A stretch of DNA of 50,012 nt, taken from Escherichia coli. GTDB taxonomy: Bacteria > Pseudomonadota > Gammaproteobacteria > Enterobacterales > Enterobacteriaceae. The DNA lies in NCBI RefSeq assembly GCF_003334315.1, contig NZ_QOWR01000033.1, one strand, 5' to 3'. How positions within the stretch are numbered: the first letter of the stretch is position 1; each line of letters begins with the position of its first letter. The notes beneath the pieces are model-generated. The model was given only the letters and a program-made list of their open reading frames with translations. It ran no database searches and was not told the origin of the DNA. The position numbers were made by a program, and so were the translations under genes. Positions 4,050 through 26,719 of the stretch are shown here, piece by piece.

Positions 4050-4672
4050 CTAACGGGAATCATCACCACTTTGCGCACTGCGGGGCGTTCAGTGAGTTGC
4101 TGATACCAGCGTTGCAGATTTGGACGCGGTGTCCAGGTCAGGCCAACGTTAAACAAATTGTAGATGAACGGTGCGATAGCGATATCGCCCACACCAAACT
4201 CGTCGCCAGAGAACCATTTTACTTTTGCCAGTTCCGCATCGAGCAGGGCAAACAGGGCGTCGCACTCTTTGCAACTGGCATCAATGGCGGCCTGATCGCG
4301 CTCTTCCGGTGGTGTTCTGACTAATCCCATCAGGATCCCGCGATGAGCATTACTGAGCGTCTGGTTTGCCCAGTCCATCCATTTTTCCGCTTCCGCACGA
4401 CGTGCCGGTGAGTCGATCCACAGACGTTTTTGCCCGTACTGTGCCGCCAGATAGCGGACAATGGCGTTTGATTCCCAAAGAATGAGATCACTTTCGTCGT
4501 CACGCAACAACGGCACCAGCCCGTTAGGGTTCATCGCCAGAAAATCAGCATCGTGATTTATCCCAAACTCACGGCCCGCGAGAATTTGCTCATAAGGTAG
4601 TTCCAGTTCTTCGAGCGTCAGCAATACTTTTTTTACGTTGGTTGAATTATTCCGACCCCACAGCGTAATCAT
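4046..4672 (-). CDS. gstB: Glutathione S-transferase GstB
   Basis: Start taken at MITLWGR...; synteny. Confidence 0.85.
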
Positions 4673-4918
4673 ACTCACCCCTTTTCCGACAGGCAGCCAC
4701 AGGCTGAACAGGACTCCGATGGTGAAGTAAAGTTAACTTTTAAGCAACAGCTGGCAAAAAAATGACACCAGAAGCAGCGAAGCGGCAGGATATTGCATAA
4801 ACTTTAAAAACTTTACCAACTTACGGTTTCTTTAAGTTTGTGTGTGCGTTATTAATCACCGAACTTATCATACGGCGATATAACGTATTTTTTTTGAATG
4901 GATACTCGGGTGGCATTT

Positions 4919-6121
4919 ATGACGCAATACTCCTCTCTCCTTCGTGGTCTTGCAGCAGGTTCTGCATTTTTATTCCTTTTTGCCCCAACGGCATTCGCGG
5001 CGGAACAAACCGTTGAAGCGCCGAGCGTGGATGCGCGTGCATGGATTTTAATGGATTACGCCAGCGGTAAAGTGCTGGCAGAAGGCAACGCGGATGAGAA
5101 ACTGGATCCCGCGAGCCTGACTAAAATCATGACCAGCTATGTGGTTGGGCAGGCGCTTAAGGCCGATAAGATTAAACTCACCGATATGGTGACGGTCGGT
5201 AAAGATGCCTGGGCGACGGGAAATCCGGCACTGCGTGGTTCATCGGTAATGTTCCTCAAACCGGGCGATCAGGTTTCGGTGGCAGACTTGAACAAAGGTG
5301 TGATTATCCAGTCCGGTAATGACGCCTGTATTGCGCTGGCCGATTACGTTGCCGGGAGCCAGGAGTCATTCATTGGTTTGATGAATGGTTATGCCAAAAA
5401 ACTGGGTCTGACCAACACTACCTTCCAGACGGTGCACGGTCTGGATGCGCCGGGGCAGTTCAGTACCGCGCGCGATATGGCATTGCTGGGTAAAGCATTG
5501 ATCCACGATGTGCCGGAAGAGTACGCCATTCATAAAGAGAAAGAGTTCACCTTCAACAAAATTCGTCAGCCTAACCGTAACCGTCTGCTGTGGAGCAGCA
5601 ATCTGAATGTTGATGGCATGAAGACAGGAACCACGGCAGGCGCGGGATATAATCTGGTTGCTTCGGCTACCCAGGGCGATATGCGTTTAATCTCCGTAGT
5701 GCTGGGGGCGAAAACTGACCGTATCCGTTTTAATGAGTCTGAGAAATTATTGACCTGGGGTTTCCGCTTCTTTGAAACCGTGACGCCAATTAAACCTGAT
5801 GCCACCTTTGTGACTCAGCGCGTCTGGTTTGGTGATAAGAGCGAAGTGAATCTCGGGGCAGGTGAAGCGGGCTCAGTGACCATACCGCGTGGGCAGCTGA
5901 AAAACCTGAAAGCGAGTTATACGTTAACGGAACCGCAGCTTACCGCACCGCTGAAAAAAGGTCAGGTTGTCGGGACCATTGATTTCCAGCTTAACGGTAA
6001 ATCCATTGAGCAGCGTCCGCTGATCGTGATGGAAAATGTGGAAGAGGGCGGATTCTTTGGTCGGATGTGGGATTTCGTGATGATGAAATTCCATCAGTGG
6101 TTCGGCAGCTGGTTCTCTTAA
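4919..6121 (+). CDS. dacC: D-alanyl-D-alanine carboxypeptidase PBP6 (DacC)
   Basis: Start at [11 protein letters not shown]... with signal peptide; carries the serine-peptidase SxxK (SLTK) and SGN motifs. Confidence 0.9.
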
Positions 6122-6167
6122 TCTTCTGATAACCGGATGGCGCGAAACGTCATCCGGTTATACGTCA

Positions 6168-6926
6168 TTAATACATCAACTTAATGCGCTGCGTCTGCGC
6201 GTACTTCACATACTCATCTTCCGGGCAACAATCGCTCACCACAATATCAAAGCGTTTCAGGTCACCCATGCGCGCCGGACGCACCTTGCCAAATTTACTG
6301 TGGTCGACAACCAGCACATGCTTTTGCGCCATCGACATGGCCCAGTGTTTTACCGGCAACTCTTCAAGATTAAAACAGGTAGCGCCTTTACTGACATGCA
6401 CGCCCGCCGCGGAATAAAAAGCGATATCCGGGCAAAAATTATTCAACGTTTGCTGAAAATCGATGGGTTTGAAAATGGCGTTGCTGGCGTGAAATTCACC
6501 ACCGCACAGAAATGCGCGGCAATGGGGTTTCTCTTTCAGCGCCAGAAAGGTATTTAGCGAATAACAAACGGCGGTAAAAGGGATTTCATTATCAATCGCT
6601 TCAATAATCCACGGCGTGGTGGTGCCACAGTCAAAAAAGAGGGTCTGATCGGGTTCTACCAGCGTCGCAGCCAGTTTTGCCGCCCGGCGTTTTTCTTCCA
6701 CCAGGCGGGATTTTTGATCGCTTAACAGGTAATGGCTGGCACTGCGCGGTTCCAGAACAATATAGCCGCCGAGCAAAACGACGGGCGCACTGTGGTTGTT
6801 CAGATCGCGACGAATCGTCATCTCCGAAACCCCAAGCAGGGCGGCGGCGTCTTTAAGATGTAACTTATCGCTGCGTTTTAATTCTTGCAGCAGCTGCCCG
6901 ATACGCTCTTCGCGACGTGTTTCCAT
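6168..6926 (-). CDS. deoR: DeoR transcriptional repressor
   Basis: 252 aa, N-terminal HTH, synteny. Confidence 0.9.
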   Translation of the reverse strand: METRREERIGQLLQELKRSDKLHLKDAAALLGVSEMTIRRDLNNHSAPVVLLGGYIVLEPRSASHYLLSDQKSRLVEEKRRAAKLAATLVEPDQTLFFDCGTTTPWIIEAIDNEIPFTAVCYSLNTFLALKEKPHCRAFLCGGEFHASNAIFKPIDFQQTLNNFCPDIAFYSAAGVHVSKGATCFNLEELPVKHWAMSMAQKHVLVVDHSKFGKVRPARMGDLKRFDIVVSDCCPEDEYVKYAQTQRIKLMY

Positions 6927-6983
6927 AATCCCTCTGAATAGTTATTGAAGCGAGCCGCTCAATACTACACTTTTTAGCAGAGA

Positions 6984-7580
6984 TCAGTCACGCACCCAGC
7001 CTTTGCGGATCGGTAATGCAAAACAGACGCGATACCACGATTGCAGACGTTGATAGAGTTTATGCCCCATCGCTTGCCAGATAATCTGGGCACTAAGGCA
7101 GCCAATCATACCTGCCAGCAATCCACCGAGCATATCCAGCGGCCAGTGGACGCCAAGATAAACGCGCGACCAGGCAATGACGACGGCCAGCACCATTAAA
7201 AGTGAGCCGGACCACAGGCGATGCCAGCATAAAAATGCCAGTGCAAAGGTGAAAATCACCGTACCGTGATCGCTTGGGAATGAGTCATCCGCCGCATGAT
7301 GCAGGAAGTTATAGCCGATATTTTCGACAAAGGGTCGGTCGTGCGGAAAAAGATGTCCCATCGTCCAGGACACAAACAGGCTGACCGCCAGCGCGATAGC
7401 GATTTTTATCACCAGTTGCCGTTGTGCTGTAAGCCCCCACAACCAAAGTACCACGGCCAGCAACGGCACCACGGTAATCAAATCTTTAGCAATAAAAATC
7501 GCCAACGAGATCATCCACGGAGCCGAGTCTGGCGTCGCGTTAATAAGAGAGAATAGAGAGAGATTCAAATTTTCCAGCAT
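6984..7580 (-). CDS. ybjG: Undecaprenyl-pyrophosphate phosphatase YbjG (PAP2 family membrane protein)
   Basis: Start taken at MLENLNLSLF...; hydrophobic membrane protein. Confidence 0.85.
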   Translation of the reverse strand: MLENLNLSLFSLINATPDSAPWMISLAIFIAKDLITVVPLLAVVLWLWGLTAQRQLVIKIAIALAVSLFVSWTMGHLFPHDRPFVENIGYNFLHHAADDSFPSDHGTVIFTFALAFLCWHRLWSGSLLMVLAVVIAWSRVYLGVHWPLDMLGGLLAGMIGCLSAQIIWQAMGHKLYQRLQSWYRVCFALPIRKGWVRD

Positions 7581-22648: not shown

Positions 22649-22738
22649 CGCGCGCTTGATGTCATATTTCACTACTAAGCATAATGCGCCTCCATTCTTG
22701 CAAAGGAACAATGATTTACTTATCTTGTCCATAGGATT

Positions 22739-23836
22739 TTGCCGAGAAAGATCAGGTTAAGGGGATGTATTGTGGCTGAGAACGGACCGATAGAAGAATT
22801 AGCAAAGATAGTATCATCGAAGATTTTTGAGCGCTTTAAATGGAGCATATCAGGGCCGTGTGATCAGGACTTTGGATGTATTGACGAAGAAAATCATAAA
22901 CCACTCGAAAAAAAGCAGGCTCATACACACCCTGTCGATGTGGTTTTTAGCTATAAAGACCCTTATTTAAATAAAACTATTTTATTGAATACTGACCTAA
23001 AAAGTTACTCTAAGGGTTCTATTAATCCTGACATGATAGAAAAAGCGCTGACATCCCTAGGGTATACAATTTCCTGTGCTCAATATAGTCCGGAGTGGAG
23101 AGAGAAATATAATATATGCGTTGGGGATAGTGAGGTTAGAGGGTTATTGTTTGTTTATAATCATGATAACGATTTTGAGCATAACTTTTATGATTTCTTC
23201 GATCCTCCCAAACCTGCAGGAAGAAAAAGAAAGCCGAAGGCAGTTAAATTAGATAATATAAAAGTGTCTGATGGGCAACAAATACATATAATTGAGCCTA
23301 AGTCGATTAGCTATATGTTATCTATAATCGCAGATATGAATGAATTAATCAGAGATAATCAATTCCCGAGAGATGAGTATGGTTTTTATTACCCTCAACT
23401 TACATATCATAAGGTAATTGTCACCGATGATTATTTACCTGCAACGATAGAGTCTTTGACTGCTCCATTTTTAATTATTAAACATGATGCAGTTTACTCG
23501 TATGATCGCGAGCTACAAAGAGAAGTTGAAGTTTATCCTGCAGGGTATGTTGTATATTATAATCGTCCGGGCTCCACAGATATGGAGTTTTATTATCTCT
23601 TTGATCTTTTAACTAACTACCAGATTCTGAATGGAAAAAACAACATAAGAATACGTATCGCGACAAAAGATCGGAATGATTCAATAAGATCGCATTTTAA
23701 ACGGGCACTTCAGAAGTATGCTTTTGATTGGAATTATGATGATAGTGCAAAGGAAAAACTACTTTCTATGGATATTTATTTAGTTCCTACAGTTAAAGAG
23801 TTTTATAGTACTGAATCAACATCTTGGGATTATTGA
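22739..23836 (+). CDS. Hypothetical protein 1 of a three-gene cargo operon (possible start at in-frame GTG 22772 after aagggga)
   Basis: 365 aa ORF, AT-rich; no recognisable motif beyond a weak D...D-x-K pattern. Confidence 0.6.
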   Translation: MPRKIRLRGCIVAENGPIEELAKIVSSKIFERFKWSISGPCDQDFGCIDEENHKPLEKKQAHTHPVDVVFSYKDPYLNKTILLNTDLKSYSKGSINPDMIEKALTSLGYTISCAQYSPEWREKYNICVGDSEVRGLLFVYNHDNDFEHNFYDFFDPPKPAGRKRKPKAVKLDNIKVSDGQQIHIIEPKSISYMLSIIADMNELIRDNQFPRDEYGFYYPQLTYHKVIVTDDYLPATIESLTAPFLIIKHDAVYSYDRELQREVEVYPAGYVVYYNRPGSTDMEFYYLFDLLTNYQILNGKNNIRIRIATKDRNDSIRSHFKRALQKYAFDWNYDDSAKEKLLSMDIYLVPTVKEFYSTESTSWDY

Positions 23837-23837
23837 T

Positions 23838-24962
23838 ATGAGCAATATTTATAGTGTGACGGATAAGGTTTTATGTGATGCTCTTAACCAGTCACAAGTA
23901 ACTCAAAATGAGATGAGAGAGCTTTATCTTTCAAGAGGTATAATTATTTCAAAAAACACCGATAGAAAATTATTAGCTAAAAACTTCTCAAAGTTCACTC
24001 ATGATTACTATGATCATCAGAAAATTGCAGAGATATTAGGAAGTGAGCCTCGGAGGGAGCGTTCTACTTCAAGATTAGTATCTAATATGCCTGAAAAAAC
24101 AATTTTATTAAAAGCGGCGGATTCGCTAAAAAAAGAGCTAACAGACCAAAAAGACCTCTGCCATATAGTTGCTGATAAAAGTGGCATGATAAATATTCAT
24201 ATAACTTATATGTCAACAAATTTTTCAAAAAGTGATTTCAAACAAGTCGTTAAAAAGCAAGCTGTCATAGAGGTAGAGCCAACAGAAGCTGGTTATGTGA
24301 TTCGCCGTCCAGATAATGAGCAAACTGAGGTTTATGAGAATCAGTTACTTGCTATCGTTGAAAGATTATCAAAGGAAAGAGCGATTGAGGAAGGAAAACC
24401 AATTTCGGACGCTACTCTCGATATCCAAGAAATAAGTCTAGAAAACATTGATTCCCCTCAGTCCAGAACTGATTTCTTTACGAAATTAATAAATGGGCTT
24501 GAAGGTTATGAACTCGATGATGTAACAGATGCTTATGTTTATCACCCAAAACCAGAAGAGATTGAAGAGGAAGACGGCGAAACAGATTTAGGAGTACATG
24601 TTAGTAAGGCATCGTTGAAAGGGGAAGGGGTGCTCAAATCTGAAGAAATCAACTCACTTTATGAGCGTGGCTTTTATATATGTAAAATTAAATGGCGAGT
24701 TAAAGAGAAAGGTGCGGATCCAAATATTTTTGAGTTTGAAGCGCAATTTAACGACGCTCAAAATTTTAAGGGGTTTTCATATATAGCTAAAGGTATTAAA
24801 AAATACAAAGGGGGTGGCGAGTATAATAAGTCAACAGTCCAGTTGAAAGATAGTCAGAAGTTATTTTTTAGTCGTATGATTGAAAAGGCAGCCCGTTCCA
24901 TTATAATTGAACTAAATAAACAGGCTCAGGGGAAGAAAGATGGAAAGTCTGATCAGAGTTAA
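23838..24962 (+). CDS. Hypothetical protein 2 of the three-gene cargo operon
   Basis: 374 aa; ATG 2 nt after the upstream stop; acidic, Lys/Glu-rich, no nucleotide-binding motif. Confidence 0.6.
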   Translation: MSNIYSVTDKVLCDALNQSQVTQNEMRELYLSRGIIISKNTDRKLLAKNFSKFTHDYYDHQKIAEILGSEPRRERSTSRLVSNMPEKTILLKAADSLKKELTDQKDLCHIVADKSGMINIHITYMSTNFSKSDFKQVVKKQAVIEVEPTEAGYVIRRPDNEQTEVYENQLLAIVERLSKERAIEEGKPISDATLDIQEISLENIDSPQSRTDFFTKLINGLEGYELDDVTDAYVYHPKPEEIEEEDGETDLGVHVSKASLKGEGVLKSEEINSLYERGFYICKIKWRVKEKGADPNIFEFEAQFNDAQNFKGFSYIAKGIKKYKGGGEYNKSTVQLKDSQKLFFSRMIEKAARSIIIELNKQAQGKKDGKSDQS

Positions 24963-25641
24963 ATGGAATAGATTGAAGTCTAATCTTACATTAAGTGAGA
25001 TTGCTTTTTATATAAAGAGTAACAAATACTCTGAAGAACTTGGCTATGGTTATTCTGACTTTGAAGTTTCATCTGACGTACTATCAGCTACGTATACTGA
25101 AGCTAAGTTGAATAAACAGACTTCAGTTGATCCTTTGGGTAACGAAAATGAACAAGAGTTCATTACTTATGAGTCAATTCAGTTCTCTATATCTAAACTC
25201 ATAGGTAGGTTATATTTATTATCAGTTTACAATCCACCAAAATCAATAAAGGCTTTGACAGAGCGACTTAGTGCGGATTCAGGTTATAAAATAGGGTTTG
25301 GCATCGTTGATATTAAACTGTCTGAGTATTTGGATTCGCTGCATAAAAAATATGATTTGGAACTTGTTAGTATCAAGAAGGTTAAGGTTAGTAATTTGAT
25401 AGTTAATGATAACTCTAAGGCAACCGTAGAGGTTACATCTAAGAAAAATGCATTTGATGATGTGAAGGATATTATTGGGGATAAAGCATATTCTCTTGAT
25501 AAGGTCAGGGCGGCAGGATATGTTCTAGGACATCGTTGTGAATTTGAGATATCGAAGAATGGTTCTGTCTGTGCTAACGAGGGTATGGTTAAATATTTAA
25601 CTGAGACAATAGTTTCTCATATTCTTGAAAGGGAAATTTAA
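24940..25641 (+). CDS. Hypothetical protein 3 of the three-gene cargo operon
   Basis: 233 aa; overlaps the upstream gene by 23 nt; followed by a terminator hairpin. Confidence 0.55.
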   Translation: MESLIRVKWNRLKSNLTLSEIAFYIKSNKYSEELGYGYSDFEVSSDVLSATYTEAKLNKQTSVDPLGNENEQEFITYESIQFSISKLIGRLYLLSVYNPPKSIKALTERLSADSGYKIGFGIVDIKLSEYLDSLHKKYDLELVSIKKVKVSNLIVNDNSKATVEVTSKKNAFDDVKDIIGDKAYSLDKVRAAGYVLGHRCEFEISKNGSVCANEGMVKYLTETIVSHILEREI

Positions 25642-25646
25642 TAGTT

Positions 25647-25675
25647 GGCGGTATTCATACCGCCGCCTCTATTTT
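25647..25675. terminator. Hairpin between the convergent cargo operon and Q (ggcggtat..ataccgcc plus T-rich run)
   Basis: Inverted repeat read directly. Confidence 0.5.
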
Positions 25676-25684
25676 CTCTGAAAC

Positions 25685-26719
25685 TCAAAGAGTTAGTTCA
25701 TATTTTTCAAAACGCATAATTTTCTCCCCTAACCATTCATTGAGCCCCTCGAGTTGTTTTTGTAGAGGCATCAGTTCGTTACGGACAAAGACGCAACTGG
25801 CCTTCTCCACATCCCCAAACCCGCCAACATTACTTGGCATAATCCCCATCATCTGTGGTGGCACGCGGTGCGCAGCCATCATGTCATCACGGCTCACGTT
25901 CTTGATATTCAGAAACTCATCCTTCGCTGCGACTTCTGACAACGGGATAATCTGAAGTCCGTCCTTTTTGCCGTTAGGCGAGTACATAAACAGATTGCGG
26001 AAGTTGCCAGGGCCTTTGGCGCTTTTCATCGCGTTGCGGAGGTTGTTCACATCCTCCTGGTTCTGCGCGGCATCGGTCATATACATGATGAAGCCTGCAT
26101 GGCTGCCGTTGATGTAATACTTACGGCGGAACAGCGTGGCGGACTCGTTGAGCAGGGCTGACGGAATGGCAGAAAGATAACCGGGCAGGCCGTAGATCTC
26201 CTGATTAATATCCGGTTCCATCAGATGAAAAATGCTGCCTTTCGTGAACTGATACGGCTGGGTTGTCATACCGTATTGCACAAACCAGTAGGTATCCAGG
26301 TCTAATCCGCGTCGGGTGTATTTTGCCAGCGCAGGTTCAAGGGCGATCACTTCACCGAAGCGGTTCGTGCGTTTCTCCAGATAGGCATTGCCAAATACCA
26401 GATAGTCCTGCACAAAACGCGAAAAAGCCTGCTGGCTGAGCAGAGGATGAGGGATATAGGTACTGGTCAGAATGTTACACTTTACTGCAATCGGGGAACT
26501 GTGATGCACGGCAGCGCGGAAGGTGCGCGCCAGTCCGTCAAAGCTGACGGGAGGCTCATACCAGCGGTCCATCTGTACGCATTCCACATAGTCCAGCAGT
26601 TCACGGCGGTCCAGAACAGGAACGGGATCGCCGAAGCTGAATGCTTCGGCTGTAGTTTGACTTTTAAGCTGGATCTGTTTCGTCGCCGCAGCTCGGTTCT
26701 TCTTACTCTTTCCCATCAA
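25685..26719 (-). CDS. Q: Portal protein (P2 gpQ)
   Basis: 344 aa; convergent with cos and adjacent to terminase, as in P2. Confidence 0.9.
   Translation of the reverse strand: MMGKSKKNRAAATKQIQLKSQTTAEAFSFGDPVPVLDRRELLDYVECVQMDRWYEPPVSFDGLARTFRAAVHHSSPIAVKCNILTSTYIPHPLLSQQAFSRFVQDYLVFGNAYLEKRTNRFGEVIALEPALAKYTRRGLDLDTYWFVQYGMTTQPYQFTKGSIFHLMEPDINQEIYGLPGYLSAIPSALLNESATLFRRKYYINGSHAGFIMYMTDAAQNQEDVNNLRNAMKSAKGPGNFRNLFMYSPNGKKDGLQIIPLSEVAAKDEFLNIKNVSRDDMMAAHRVPPQMMGIMPSNVGGFGDVEKASCVFVRNELMPLQKQLEGLNEWLGEKIMRFEKYELTL

Follow-up and report, generated by a model that had tools for sequence, protein, structure and literature searches.

The three-gene operon between cos and the portal gene Q in this window, a 50,012-nt stretch of Escherichia coli contig NZ_QOWR01000033.1, is well supported by sequence comparison as a divergent allele of the 3HP system (Rst_3HP) that a P2-like prophage carries as cargo in its cos-proximal hotspot. 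We now put forward, as the most likely mechanism, that an RdgC-like clamp or sensor licenses a PD-(D/E)xK nuclease, and we give the 3HP identity and this mechanism, taken together as one explanation, somewhat better than an even chance. The family is already catalogued, as 3HP in PADLOC and as Rst_3HP in DefenseFinder, and one member has been validated; the operon is an additional member and not the uncharacterised system that the first-pass annotation took it to be. The name 3HP can be given to the locus in annotation, and hp1 can be marked as a nuclease gene. The allele is rare, being found in 3 of 5426 complete E. coli genomes.

The three genes lie tightly packed on the + strand. The first, hp1 (22772..23836, 354 aa), ends with TGA at 23834-23836, and after one spacer base the ATG of hp2 (23838..24962, 374 aa) follows at 23838; hp3 (24940..25641, 233 aa) overlaps hp2 by 23 nt (24940-24962). 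The first-pass annotation had described three coupled open reading frames in this arrangement, and the hp2 ATG and the overlap were borne out, while for the first gene the reading frame stands and the start and length do not. The TTG at 22739 that it had used (365 aa) was rejected because the homologues all begin with MAENGP or MxGET at GTG 22772. This GTG has AGGGGA upstream, most of the closest homologues are 352-358 aa long, and PGAP likewise annotates hp1 as a 1065-nt gene in NZ_CP062855. The operon is also AT-rich, as had been noted, with a GC content of 0.31-0.37 versus 0.52-0.61 for the flanking phage genes Q and P. It is closed by an intrinsic-terminator-like hairpin (25646-25665) with a T-run (together 25646..25675, + strand), which lies 20 nt from the end of Q (25685-26719, - strand) and is convergent with it, again in agreement with the first description. 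Upstream of hp1, a consensus scan gave a weak candidate sigma-70 promoter, TTGATG-18-CATAAT (22656..22685, + strand, 9/12 matches), which is a positional candidate only, since such sites are no more numerous than in shuffled sequence. An Rfam search of 22000-25800 gave no match.

The cos-type 19-mer GGCGTGGCGGGGATACGAG (22630..22648, in direct reading, no strand being assigned) divides the operon from DarT and DarG, which match PADLOC models at 1e-36 and 1e-80. The prophage bears two defence cassettes, DarTG and 3HP, one on either side of cos. About 65 nt around the 19-mer match about 1250 E. coli records, and in a megablast search against phage records the cos flank alone was matched. In the record of phage P2, cosL occupies 1-19 and Q 187-1221 with nothing coded in between, so P2 is indeed geneless at this site. 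Three further alleles of the operon occupy the same cos-Q site in P2-like prophages of E. coli and Klebsiella, and homology to structural or lysis genes, which would speak against a defence role, was looked for and not found.

The identity of the operon rests on matches of all three proteins. PADLOC assigned them to PDLC03004 (Hp1, 7e-64), PDLC03005 (Hp2, 2e-47) and PDLC03006 (Hp3, 1.5e-8), each over nearly the full length, and the genes are adjacent on one strand in the order hp1-hp2-hp3 that defines the layout of 3HP. BLASTP against the proteins of the validated system from E. coli E1114 gave collinear, full-length alignments at 39% (7e-69), 32% (7e-49) and 20% (9e-12) identity for Hp1, Hp2 and Hp3. 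That system, the 'hp + hp + hp' insert of pFR109, was cloned from the cos-proximal P2 hotspot, and on a plasmid it protects against P1, one of 8 phages (Rousset et al. 2022, PMC9122126). The likeness to the 'three hypothetical proteins' systems suspected from the operon layout is thereby upheld by profile and alignment, and an anti-phage role of the present allele is predicted from its validated homologue.

Hp1 carries the clearest functional signature. The first reading had seen a weak D...D-x-K pattern in this protein and no recognisable motif in any of the three; for Hp1 neither judgement holds, as the putative catalytic core H53-P-V-D56 ... N73-T-D75-L-K77-S-Y79 (22928..23008, + strand) is 100% conserved among 80 orthologues, with H-P-x-D...D-L-K invariant in 80/80. 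Hp1 matches phrog_7059 at 3e-145, PF26115 is found on 120/120 Hp1 homologues among the matches listed, and UniRef names several homologues 'GAPS4 PD-(D/E)XK nuclease domain-containing protein'. Our own Pfam-A scan of Hp1, Hp2 and Hp3 gave nothing significant, the release used for the scans evidently being older than PF26115, and searching PDB sequences with profiles of the three families likewise returned nothing. In hhalign, Hp1 aligns to GAPS4a-RiKo (probability 93%, E 2.7e-7) with D56 opposite the Asp that is D49 in RiKo and D59 in MAVP-R. Replacement of this catalytic Asp by Ala abolishes GAPS4 defence in both (bioRxiv 10.1101/2025.09.07.674715). The NCBIfam GapS4a model (NF047933) scores Hp1 at 36.4 bits (E 3e-9), far under its 270-bit cut-off, and also matches 5 of 8 further Hp1 orthologues; when GAPS4a-RiKo was searched with phmmer against 3731 ORFs, the best 15 of 16 matches were Hp1 ORFs. 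Hp1 is thus homologous to GapS4a yet lies outside that NCBIfam family, and the invariant D56...D75-L-K77 together with the alignment to a functional GAPS4a places it, as judged from sequence, in the PD-(D/E)xK superfamily as a predicted GAPS4a-related nuclease.

Hp2 and Hp3 are related to known proteins through predicted structure. Both AF2 models are confident, and in them the two proteins share the RdgC three-dimensional fold. Hp2 is modelled with an N-terminal four-helix domain ahead of the RdgC-like body and with a long helix at the C-terminus; its acidic loop at residues 236-256 (HPKPEEIEEEDGETDLGVHVS; 24543..24605, + strand) is of low confidence, with pLDDT falling to about 60, and across 74 orthologues the net charge of the aligned segment has a median of -7 and is -3 or below in 90%. 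Neither protein is basic overall (pI 5.8 and 6.0). A Pfam-A scan of the 74 Hp2 and 71 Hp3 alignment members gave no significant match in any of them, to Pfam RdgC or to any other model, profiles of the two families found no solved RdgC chains among PDB sequences, and hhalign of Hp2 against Hp3 gave a probability of 0.3%. Hp2 and the fast-evolving Hp3 are therefore alike in fold only and are not detectable paralogues by sequence. The link between Hp2 and GapS4b is weak. The GapS4b model (NF047934) matches six Hp2 orthologues at 20-36 bits against a 300-bit cut-off, collinearly along the N-terminal two thirds, and gives no match to the Hp2 of this operon; hhalign of Hp2 with a single GAPS4b sequence gave E 0.004 at a probability of 8%, and a phmmer search with GAPS4b returned nothing among the ORFs of the 80 loci. 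Hp3 gave no hhalign match to GAPS4b and is without a detectable GAPS4 relative. The best 50 Foldseek matches of Hp2 in AFDB50 are all uncharacterised orthologues, none named GAPS4b. The names 'WYL domain-containing protein' and 'Transcriptional regulator' that some Foldseek matches carry were set aside because Pfam did not reproduce such domains.

We propose that Hp1 is the effector, a DNase homologous to GAPS4a, and that Hp2 and Hp3 probably form a DNA-encircling or DNA-gripping module, either as a hetero-ring resembling the Iml3-Chl4 or CENP-L-N pair or as a GAPS4b-like ring of Hp2 that is regulated by Hp3. The docking site of Hp1 would probably be the N-terminal helical domain of Hp2. If 3HP works as GAPS4 does, the clamp would recognise free or broken DNA arising in infection, and this recognition would license Hp1 to degrade DNA, so that the phage genome would be lost, and probably the infected cell with it (abortive infection). 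GAPS4 itself is described as an a2b2 complex with a predicted GAPS4b ring and a DNase triggered by DNA breaks, acting abortively (Mahata et al., bioRxiv 10.1101/2025.09.07.674715). The trigger may differ in 3HP, since the validated system stops P1 only while GAPS4 defends broadly. A closed Hp2/Hp3 ring around dsDNA is what we infer from the models, and RdgC provides the precedent: it is a toroidal dimer with a basic 30 Å pore that can slide onto DNA ends, and it requires its finger domain for loading on circles (PMC2965237). Without a loader, such a ring could be threaded only from a free end of DNA, which would make it the sensor of linear or broken DNA; RdgC itself can load on circular DNA, and therefore the fold alone is no proof of end sensing. 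Our more specific proposal, that 3HP branched off the GAPS4 lineage as a three-component system whose DNA-encircling ring of Hp2 and Hp3 is itself the sensor that switches on docked Hp1, is offered as tentative, with a chance clearly short of even.

The alternative that survives best, although we consider it unlikely, is direct immunity, in which the clamp would load selectively on incoming phage DNA, such as linear P1 DNA not yet circularised, and Hp1 would degrade that DNA alone so that the cell survives. P1 DNA enters the cell linear and terminally redundant, and rings of the RdgC type can slide on from ends, which suits both this reading and the narrow, P1-only spectrum of the validated 3HP. 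GAPS4 points in two directions here, as it degrades incoming lambda DNA and also host DNA, with viability dropping at high MOI (bioRxiv 10.1101/2025.09.07.674715). Moreover, PADLOC and profile scans found in the three proteins no self/non-self feature, neither a methyltransferase nor a specificity subunit, which argues against degradation confined to phage DNA.

It is less probable still, and in our view quite unlikely, that Hp2 and Hp3 act as RdgC proper does, coating DNA and blocking RecA- or recombination-dependent phage steps (P1 circularisation or recombination-dependent replication, for example), with Hp1 as an accessory or processing nuclease. P1 can circularise through recombination of its terminal redundancy, and the predicted RdgC folds of both proteins would be compatible with such a block. 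RdgC does inhibit RecA strand exchange (PMC2965237). Against this stand the invariance of the Hp1 motif in all 80 orthologues, the need of GAPS4 defence for the catalytic Asp, and the lack of sequence similarity of Hp2 and Hp3 to RdgC.

The distribution of the trio bears on whether it serves its host prophage. In loci from species-representative genomes, spread over many phyla, the order hp1-hp2-hp3 is kept with abutting or overlapping genes in 72/80; in the other 8 the contig is short or cut, or one gene is broken, so that all 72 uncut loci are intact, and hp3 is always present in them. A P2 portal lies near only 1 of the 80 loci, and the module is therefore autonomous; the idea of a P2-specific operon was rejected on the remaining 79. 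The cassette is also carried by a Pf-like filamentous phage and occurs in defence islands, and when 10 of the nearest neighbours were sampled, 5 had matches among defence models: Septu PtuB, a type I R-M S subunit, a methyltransferase, an Mrr-like nuclease and, weakly, a PglW-like kinase. That the operon serves the prophage rather than phage exclusion, for instance by protecting cos or the DNA ends, by controlling lysogeny (a role proposed for lambda RexA) or by maintenance/addiction, is very improbable: it adjoins cos immediately and the RdgC-like RexA biases the lysis-lysogeny switch (PMC11077077), but nearly all related loci are without P2 portals, P2 itself does without the operon, the cassette travels on other vehicles, and a homologue on a plasmid, outside any prophage, gives phage resistance.

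In a survey from 2024, 3HP is listed among the systems without a known domain family. Within the limits of a restricted literature search we found no mechanism for 3HP and no paper that links RdgC, 3HP and GAPS4, and in the GAPS4 preprint there is no mention of RdgC or of 3HP (bioRxiv 10.1101/2025.09.07.674715). If true, our proposal would be the first mechanism for 3HP and would make the RdgC fold a DNA-sensing module that phage exclusion has used repeatedly, in RexA, GAPS4b, Hp2 and Hp3. The testable leads are a GAPS4a-type nuclease in Hp1 with D56, D75 and K77 as its predicted catalytic residues, the RdgC ring fold of Hp2 and Hp3, and the distant kinship of 3HP with GAPS4.

Among known systems, the E1114 3HP is alike in its three co-oriented genes of equal sizes and order, its cos-proximal P2-like hotspot and its cos 19-mer, which the cloned fragment (Rousset et al.) contains in identical form as the reverse complement; it differs in sequence, with the low identities given above, and in that here cos separates the operon, which lies towards Q, from DarTG. 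With GAPS4 there is homology of Hp1 to GAPS4a along ~200 residues, among which are the catalytic His/Asp and a common Cys/His set, and the predicted GAPS4b ring has its parallel in the ring-protein fold modelled for Hp2, whose orthologues weakly match GapS4b. GAPS4 differs in having two genes, or a fused one, so that three-gene 3HP does not share its architecture; in its motif, HGxD...SxK rather than HPxD...DxK; in its defence, which is much broader than that of the validated 3HP; and in offering no counterpart of Hp3. E. coli RdgC (PDB 2OWL), a housekeeping modulator of RecA, is a homodimer, whereas 3HP has two distinct subunits and a nuclease; Hp3 is 70 residues shorter, and Hp2 adds the N-terminal helical domain, the acidic loop and the C-terminal helix. 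Lambda RexA (of RexAB) and the Iml3-Chl4 and CENP-L-CENP-N pairs are also among the closest known systems. Shedu and Hachiman, whose sensor architectures are unrelated and for which PADLOC detected no homology to the operon proteins, are functional analogues: in these defence systems DNA ends or aberrant DNA switch on a PD-(D/E)xK nuclease, a common theme for which the GAPS4 authors also cite them (bioRxiv 10.1101/2025.09.07.674715).

The three genes between cos and the portal gene Q form a plus-strand operon which is, judging from the sequences of its products, a diverged allele of 3HP (Rst_3HP), an already known anti-phage system. We assign it to 3HP because the window proteins match PADLOC profiles (Hp1, 7e-64; Hp2, 2e-47; Hp3, 1.5e-8), they align over their full length with the E. 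coli E1114 proteins (39, 32, and 20% identity for Hp1, Hp2, and Hp3), and the cloned E1114 fragment contains the same cos-type 19-mer as the window (22630-22648). That fragment and its three proteins are given for pFR109, entered as 'hp + hp + hp' in Table S2A of a screen of the cos-proximal hotspot in E. coli P2-like prophages (Rousset et al., 2022; PMC9122126), and the first-pass annotation, which had likened the layout to 'three hypothetical proteins' systems from P2 hotspots, is borne out by these profile matches and alignments. The window proteins also match three PHROG families of unknown function. The family is already catalogued, with one validated member, and its occurrence at the P2 hotspot would not surprise a specialist. 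The earlier description of an AT-rich, terminator-closed operon at a site that is gene-free in P2 was likewise correct: GC content is 0.31-0.37 versus 0.52-0.61 in the adjoining portal and terminase genes, a single base separates the TGA of hp1 (23834-23836) from the ATG of hp2 (23838..24962), hp2 and hp3 (24940..25641) overlap by 23 nt, a GC-rich hairpin (25646-25665) followed by a T-run lies 20 nt away from where Q, on the minus strand, ends, and the gap from cosL to Q in phage P2 is only ~170 bp and contains no gene. Its one error was the start of hp1, called as 22739..23836 to give 365 aa. The GTG at 22772 (MAENGP..., with AGGGGA 5' of it) is the start position in every homologue, the closest homologues are mostly 352-358 aa, and PGAP places the start of an identical copy at the same position; because these agree, hp1 is 22772..23836 and its product 354 aa.

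Together, hp1, hp2, and hp3 make up a conserved module that is autonomous. When one genome was scanned per species, 80 loci were obtained, from Proteobacteria, Acidobacteriota, Verrucomicrobiota, Desulfobacterota, and MAGs placed in other phyla. Iterative searches of their ORFs found the gene order kept, with genes abutting or overlapping, in 72; in the other eight the contig is short or cut, or one of the genes is broken. A P2 portal is nearby in only one of the 80, and five of ten sampled nearest neighbors match defense models (Septu PtuB, a type I R-M specificity subunit, a DNA methyltransferase, an Mrr-like nuclease, and, weakly, a PglW-like kinase). Hp3 alone gave 1153 clusters at 50% identity, and the best 150 listed are 200-242 aa. 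A P. aeruginosa phage provides a vehicle very different from the P2-like myoviruses: Pseudomonas phage 99-2 (OR621024.1), filamentous, Pf-like (Tubulavirales), and 13.5 kb long, has a complete cassette (4492-7389; genes of 1080, 1095, and 690 nt) at its end, adjoining the repressor and excisionase. At two distant loci, L009 (9861-11192) and L076 (9794-10531), an ORF that begins one base past hp3 may be an occasional fourth gene; neither had a match in PADLOC or NCBIfam.

In the window, cos is flanked by this allele (22772-25641) and, on the far side of the 19-mer, by DarT and DarG (20520-22077; PADLOC, 1e-36 and 1e-80). The exact allele is rare, being present in 3 of 5426 complete E. coli genomes, always in P2-like prophages, and no complete E. 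coli genome of the collection has it together with DarT/DarG. Other E. coli prophages carry another 3HP allele at the same site, in one instance again with DarTG, and a Klebsiella P2-like phage has yet another in this hotspot. Because each half of the hotspot recurs at at least 99% identity with other partners, recombination at or near cos is suggested to shuffle the two sides independently. Small ORFs also occur here: a DinI-like ORF upstream of DarT (19747-20052), annotated as such in near-identical prophages; an unassigned 67-aa GTG ORF between DarG and cos (22159-22362); and, in the other E. coli allele, a 65-aa ORF between cos and hp1 (L083, 5923-6120, and L082, 5622-5819; NZ_CP182383 and NZ_CM168017) that is a pseudogene in one strain and has no counterpart in the window.

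Hp1 has an intact, conserved motif of the PD-(D/E)XK type and is predicted to be a nuclease. Pfam PF26115 is assigned to all 120 homologues listed, several have the UniRef title 'GAPS4 PD-(D/E)XK nuclease domain-containing protein', PGAP names Hp1 of another E. coli 3HP allele a PD-(D/E)XK nuclease, and H53-P-x-D56, D75-L-K77-S-Y, N130, D132, E227, and D278 do not vary among 80 orthologues. The NCBIfam GapS4a model matches window Hp1 at 3e-9, far below the family cut-off, and also five of eight other orthologues. The E. coli RiKo sequences of GAPS4a and GAPS4b were taken from the AF3 model file that accompanies the GAPS4 preprint. The Hp1 profile aligned to this GAPS4a at 93% probability over 202 columns, placing HTHPVD on KTHGID, where the Asp is needed for defense (bioRxiv 10.1101/2025.09.07.674715), and a GAPS4a search of the 3731 ORFs of the 80 loci gave 16 matches, the top 15 of them Hp1. 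A Cys/His tetrad (C36, H42, H53, C102; window 22877-23077), fully conserved in the 80 orthologues and resembled in spacing by GAPS4a (CC36-37, H41, H46, C97), may form a metal site beside the active center.

Hp2 and Hp3 are RdgC-fold proteins in confident AlphaFold2 models built from alignments of 74 and 71 orthologues (pLDDT 91.9 and 95.9, pTM 0.85 and 0.89), and no sequence similarity was found between the two or to RdgC or any Pfam family. The next structural matches are CENP-L and Iml3, with CENP-N and Chl4 ranked lower, all of them previously recognized as RdgC-like and gripping DNA as heterodimeric pairs; the fold also occurs in the prophage exclusion protein RexA of lambda (PMC11077077). 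The homodimer of RdgC itself is a torus whose basic pore measures 30 Å; it slides onto DNA ends and requires its finger domain for loading on circles (PMC2965237). The NCBIfam GapS4b model matches six Hp2 orthologues (2e-9 to 2e-4), in each case collinearly and across the first two thirds of the protein, and the Hp2 profile aligns weakly and collinearly with GAPS4b. Residues 236-256 of the otherwise well-folded Hp2 (window 24543-24605) form a conserved, strongly acidic, disordered loop of low model confidence (median net charge -7) within a fold of the DNA-binding kind, and it is pure speculation that this is an autoinhibitory DNA mimic. AFDB entry A0A2A2K5T7, 722 aa long and attributed to the nematode Diploscapter pachys, matches Hp2 over half its length (rank 25) and is as long as Hp1 and Hp2 combined. 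Contaminating bacterial DNA in which two genes were merged is the probable source, although a genuine Hp1-Hp2 fusion, of the kind known for GAPS4a-b, could also account for it.

The finding has moderate value for its mechanistic leads: the kinship of 3HP with GAPS4, the RdgC folds of Hp2 and Hp3, and the catalytic residues named for Hp1. These leads are apparently absent from the literature within a limited search: RdgC and 3HP both go unmentioned in the GAPS4 preprint, and a 2024 survey places Rst_3HP among systems without a known domain family. Membership of the 3HP family, the intact nuclease motif of Hp1, and the RdgC fold of Hp2 and Hp3 are shown by these data, and the mechanism is a proposal that goes beyond them. 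By analogy with GAPS4, which degrades phage and host DNA upon DNA breaks or linear DNA and is abortive (bioRxiv 10.1101/2025.09.07.674715), we propose that Hp2 and Hp3 would build a DNA-encircling sensor, the ring being either Hp2-Hp3 or Hp2-Hp2, that licenses Hp1 as the DNase, with a free DNA end as the candidate trigger and an abortive candidate outcome. Unlike GAPS4, however, the validated 3HP system has a narrow spectrum, protecting against P1 only, and its trigger may therefore differ from that of GAPS4.
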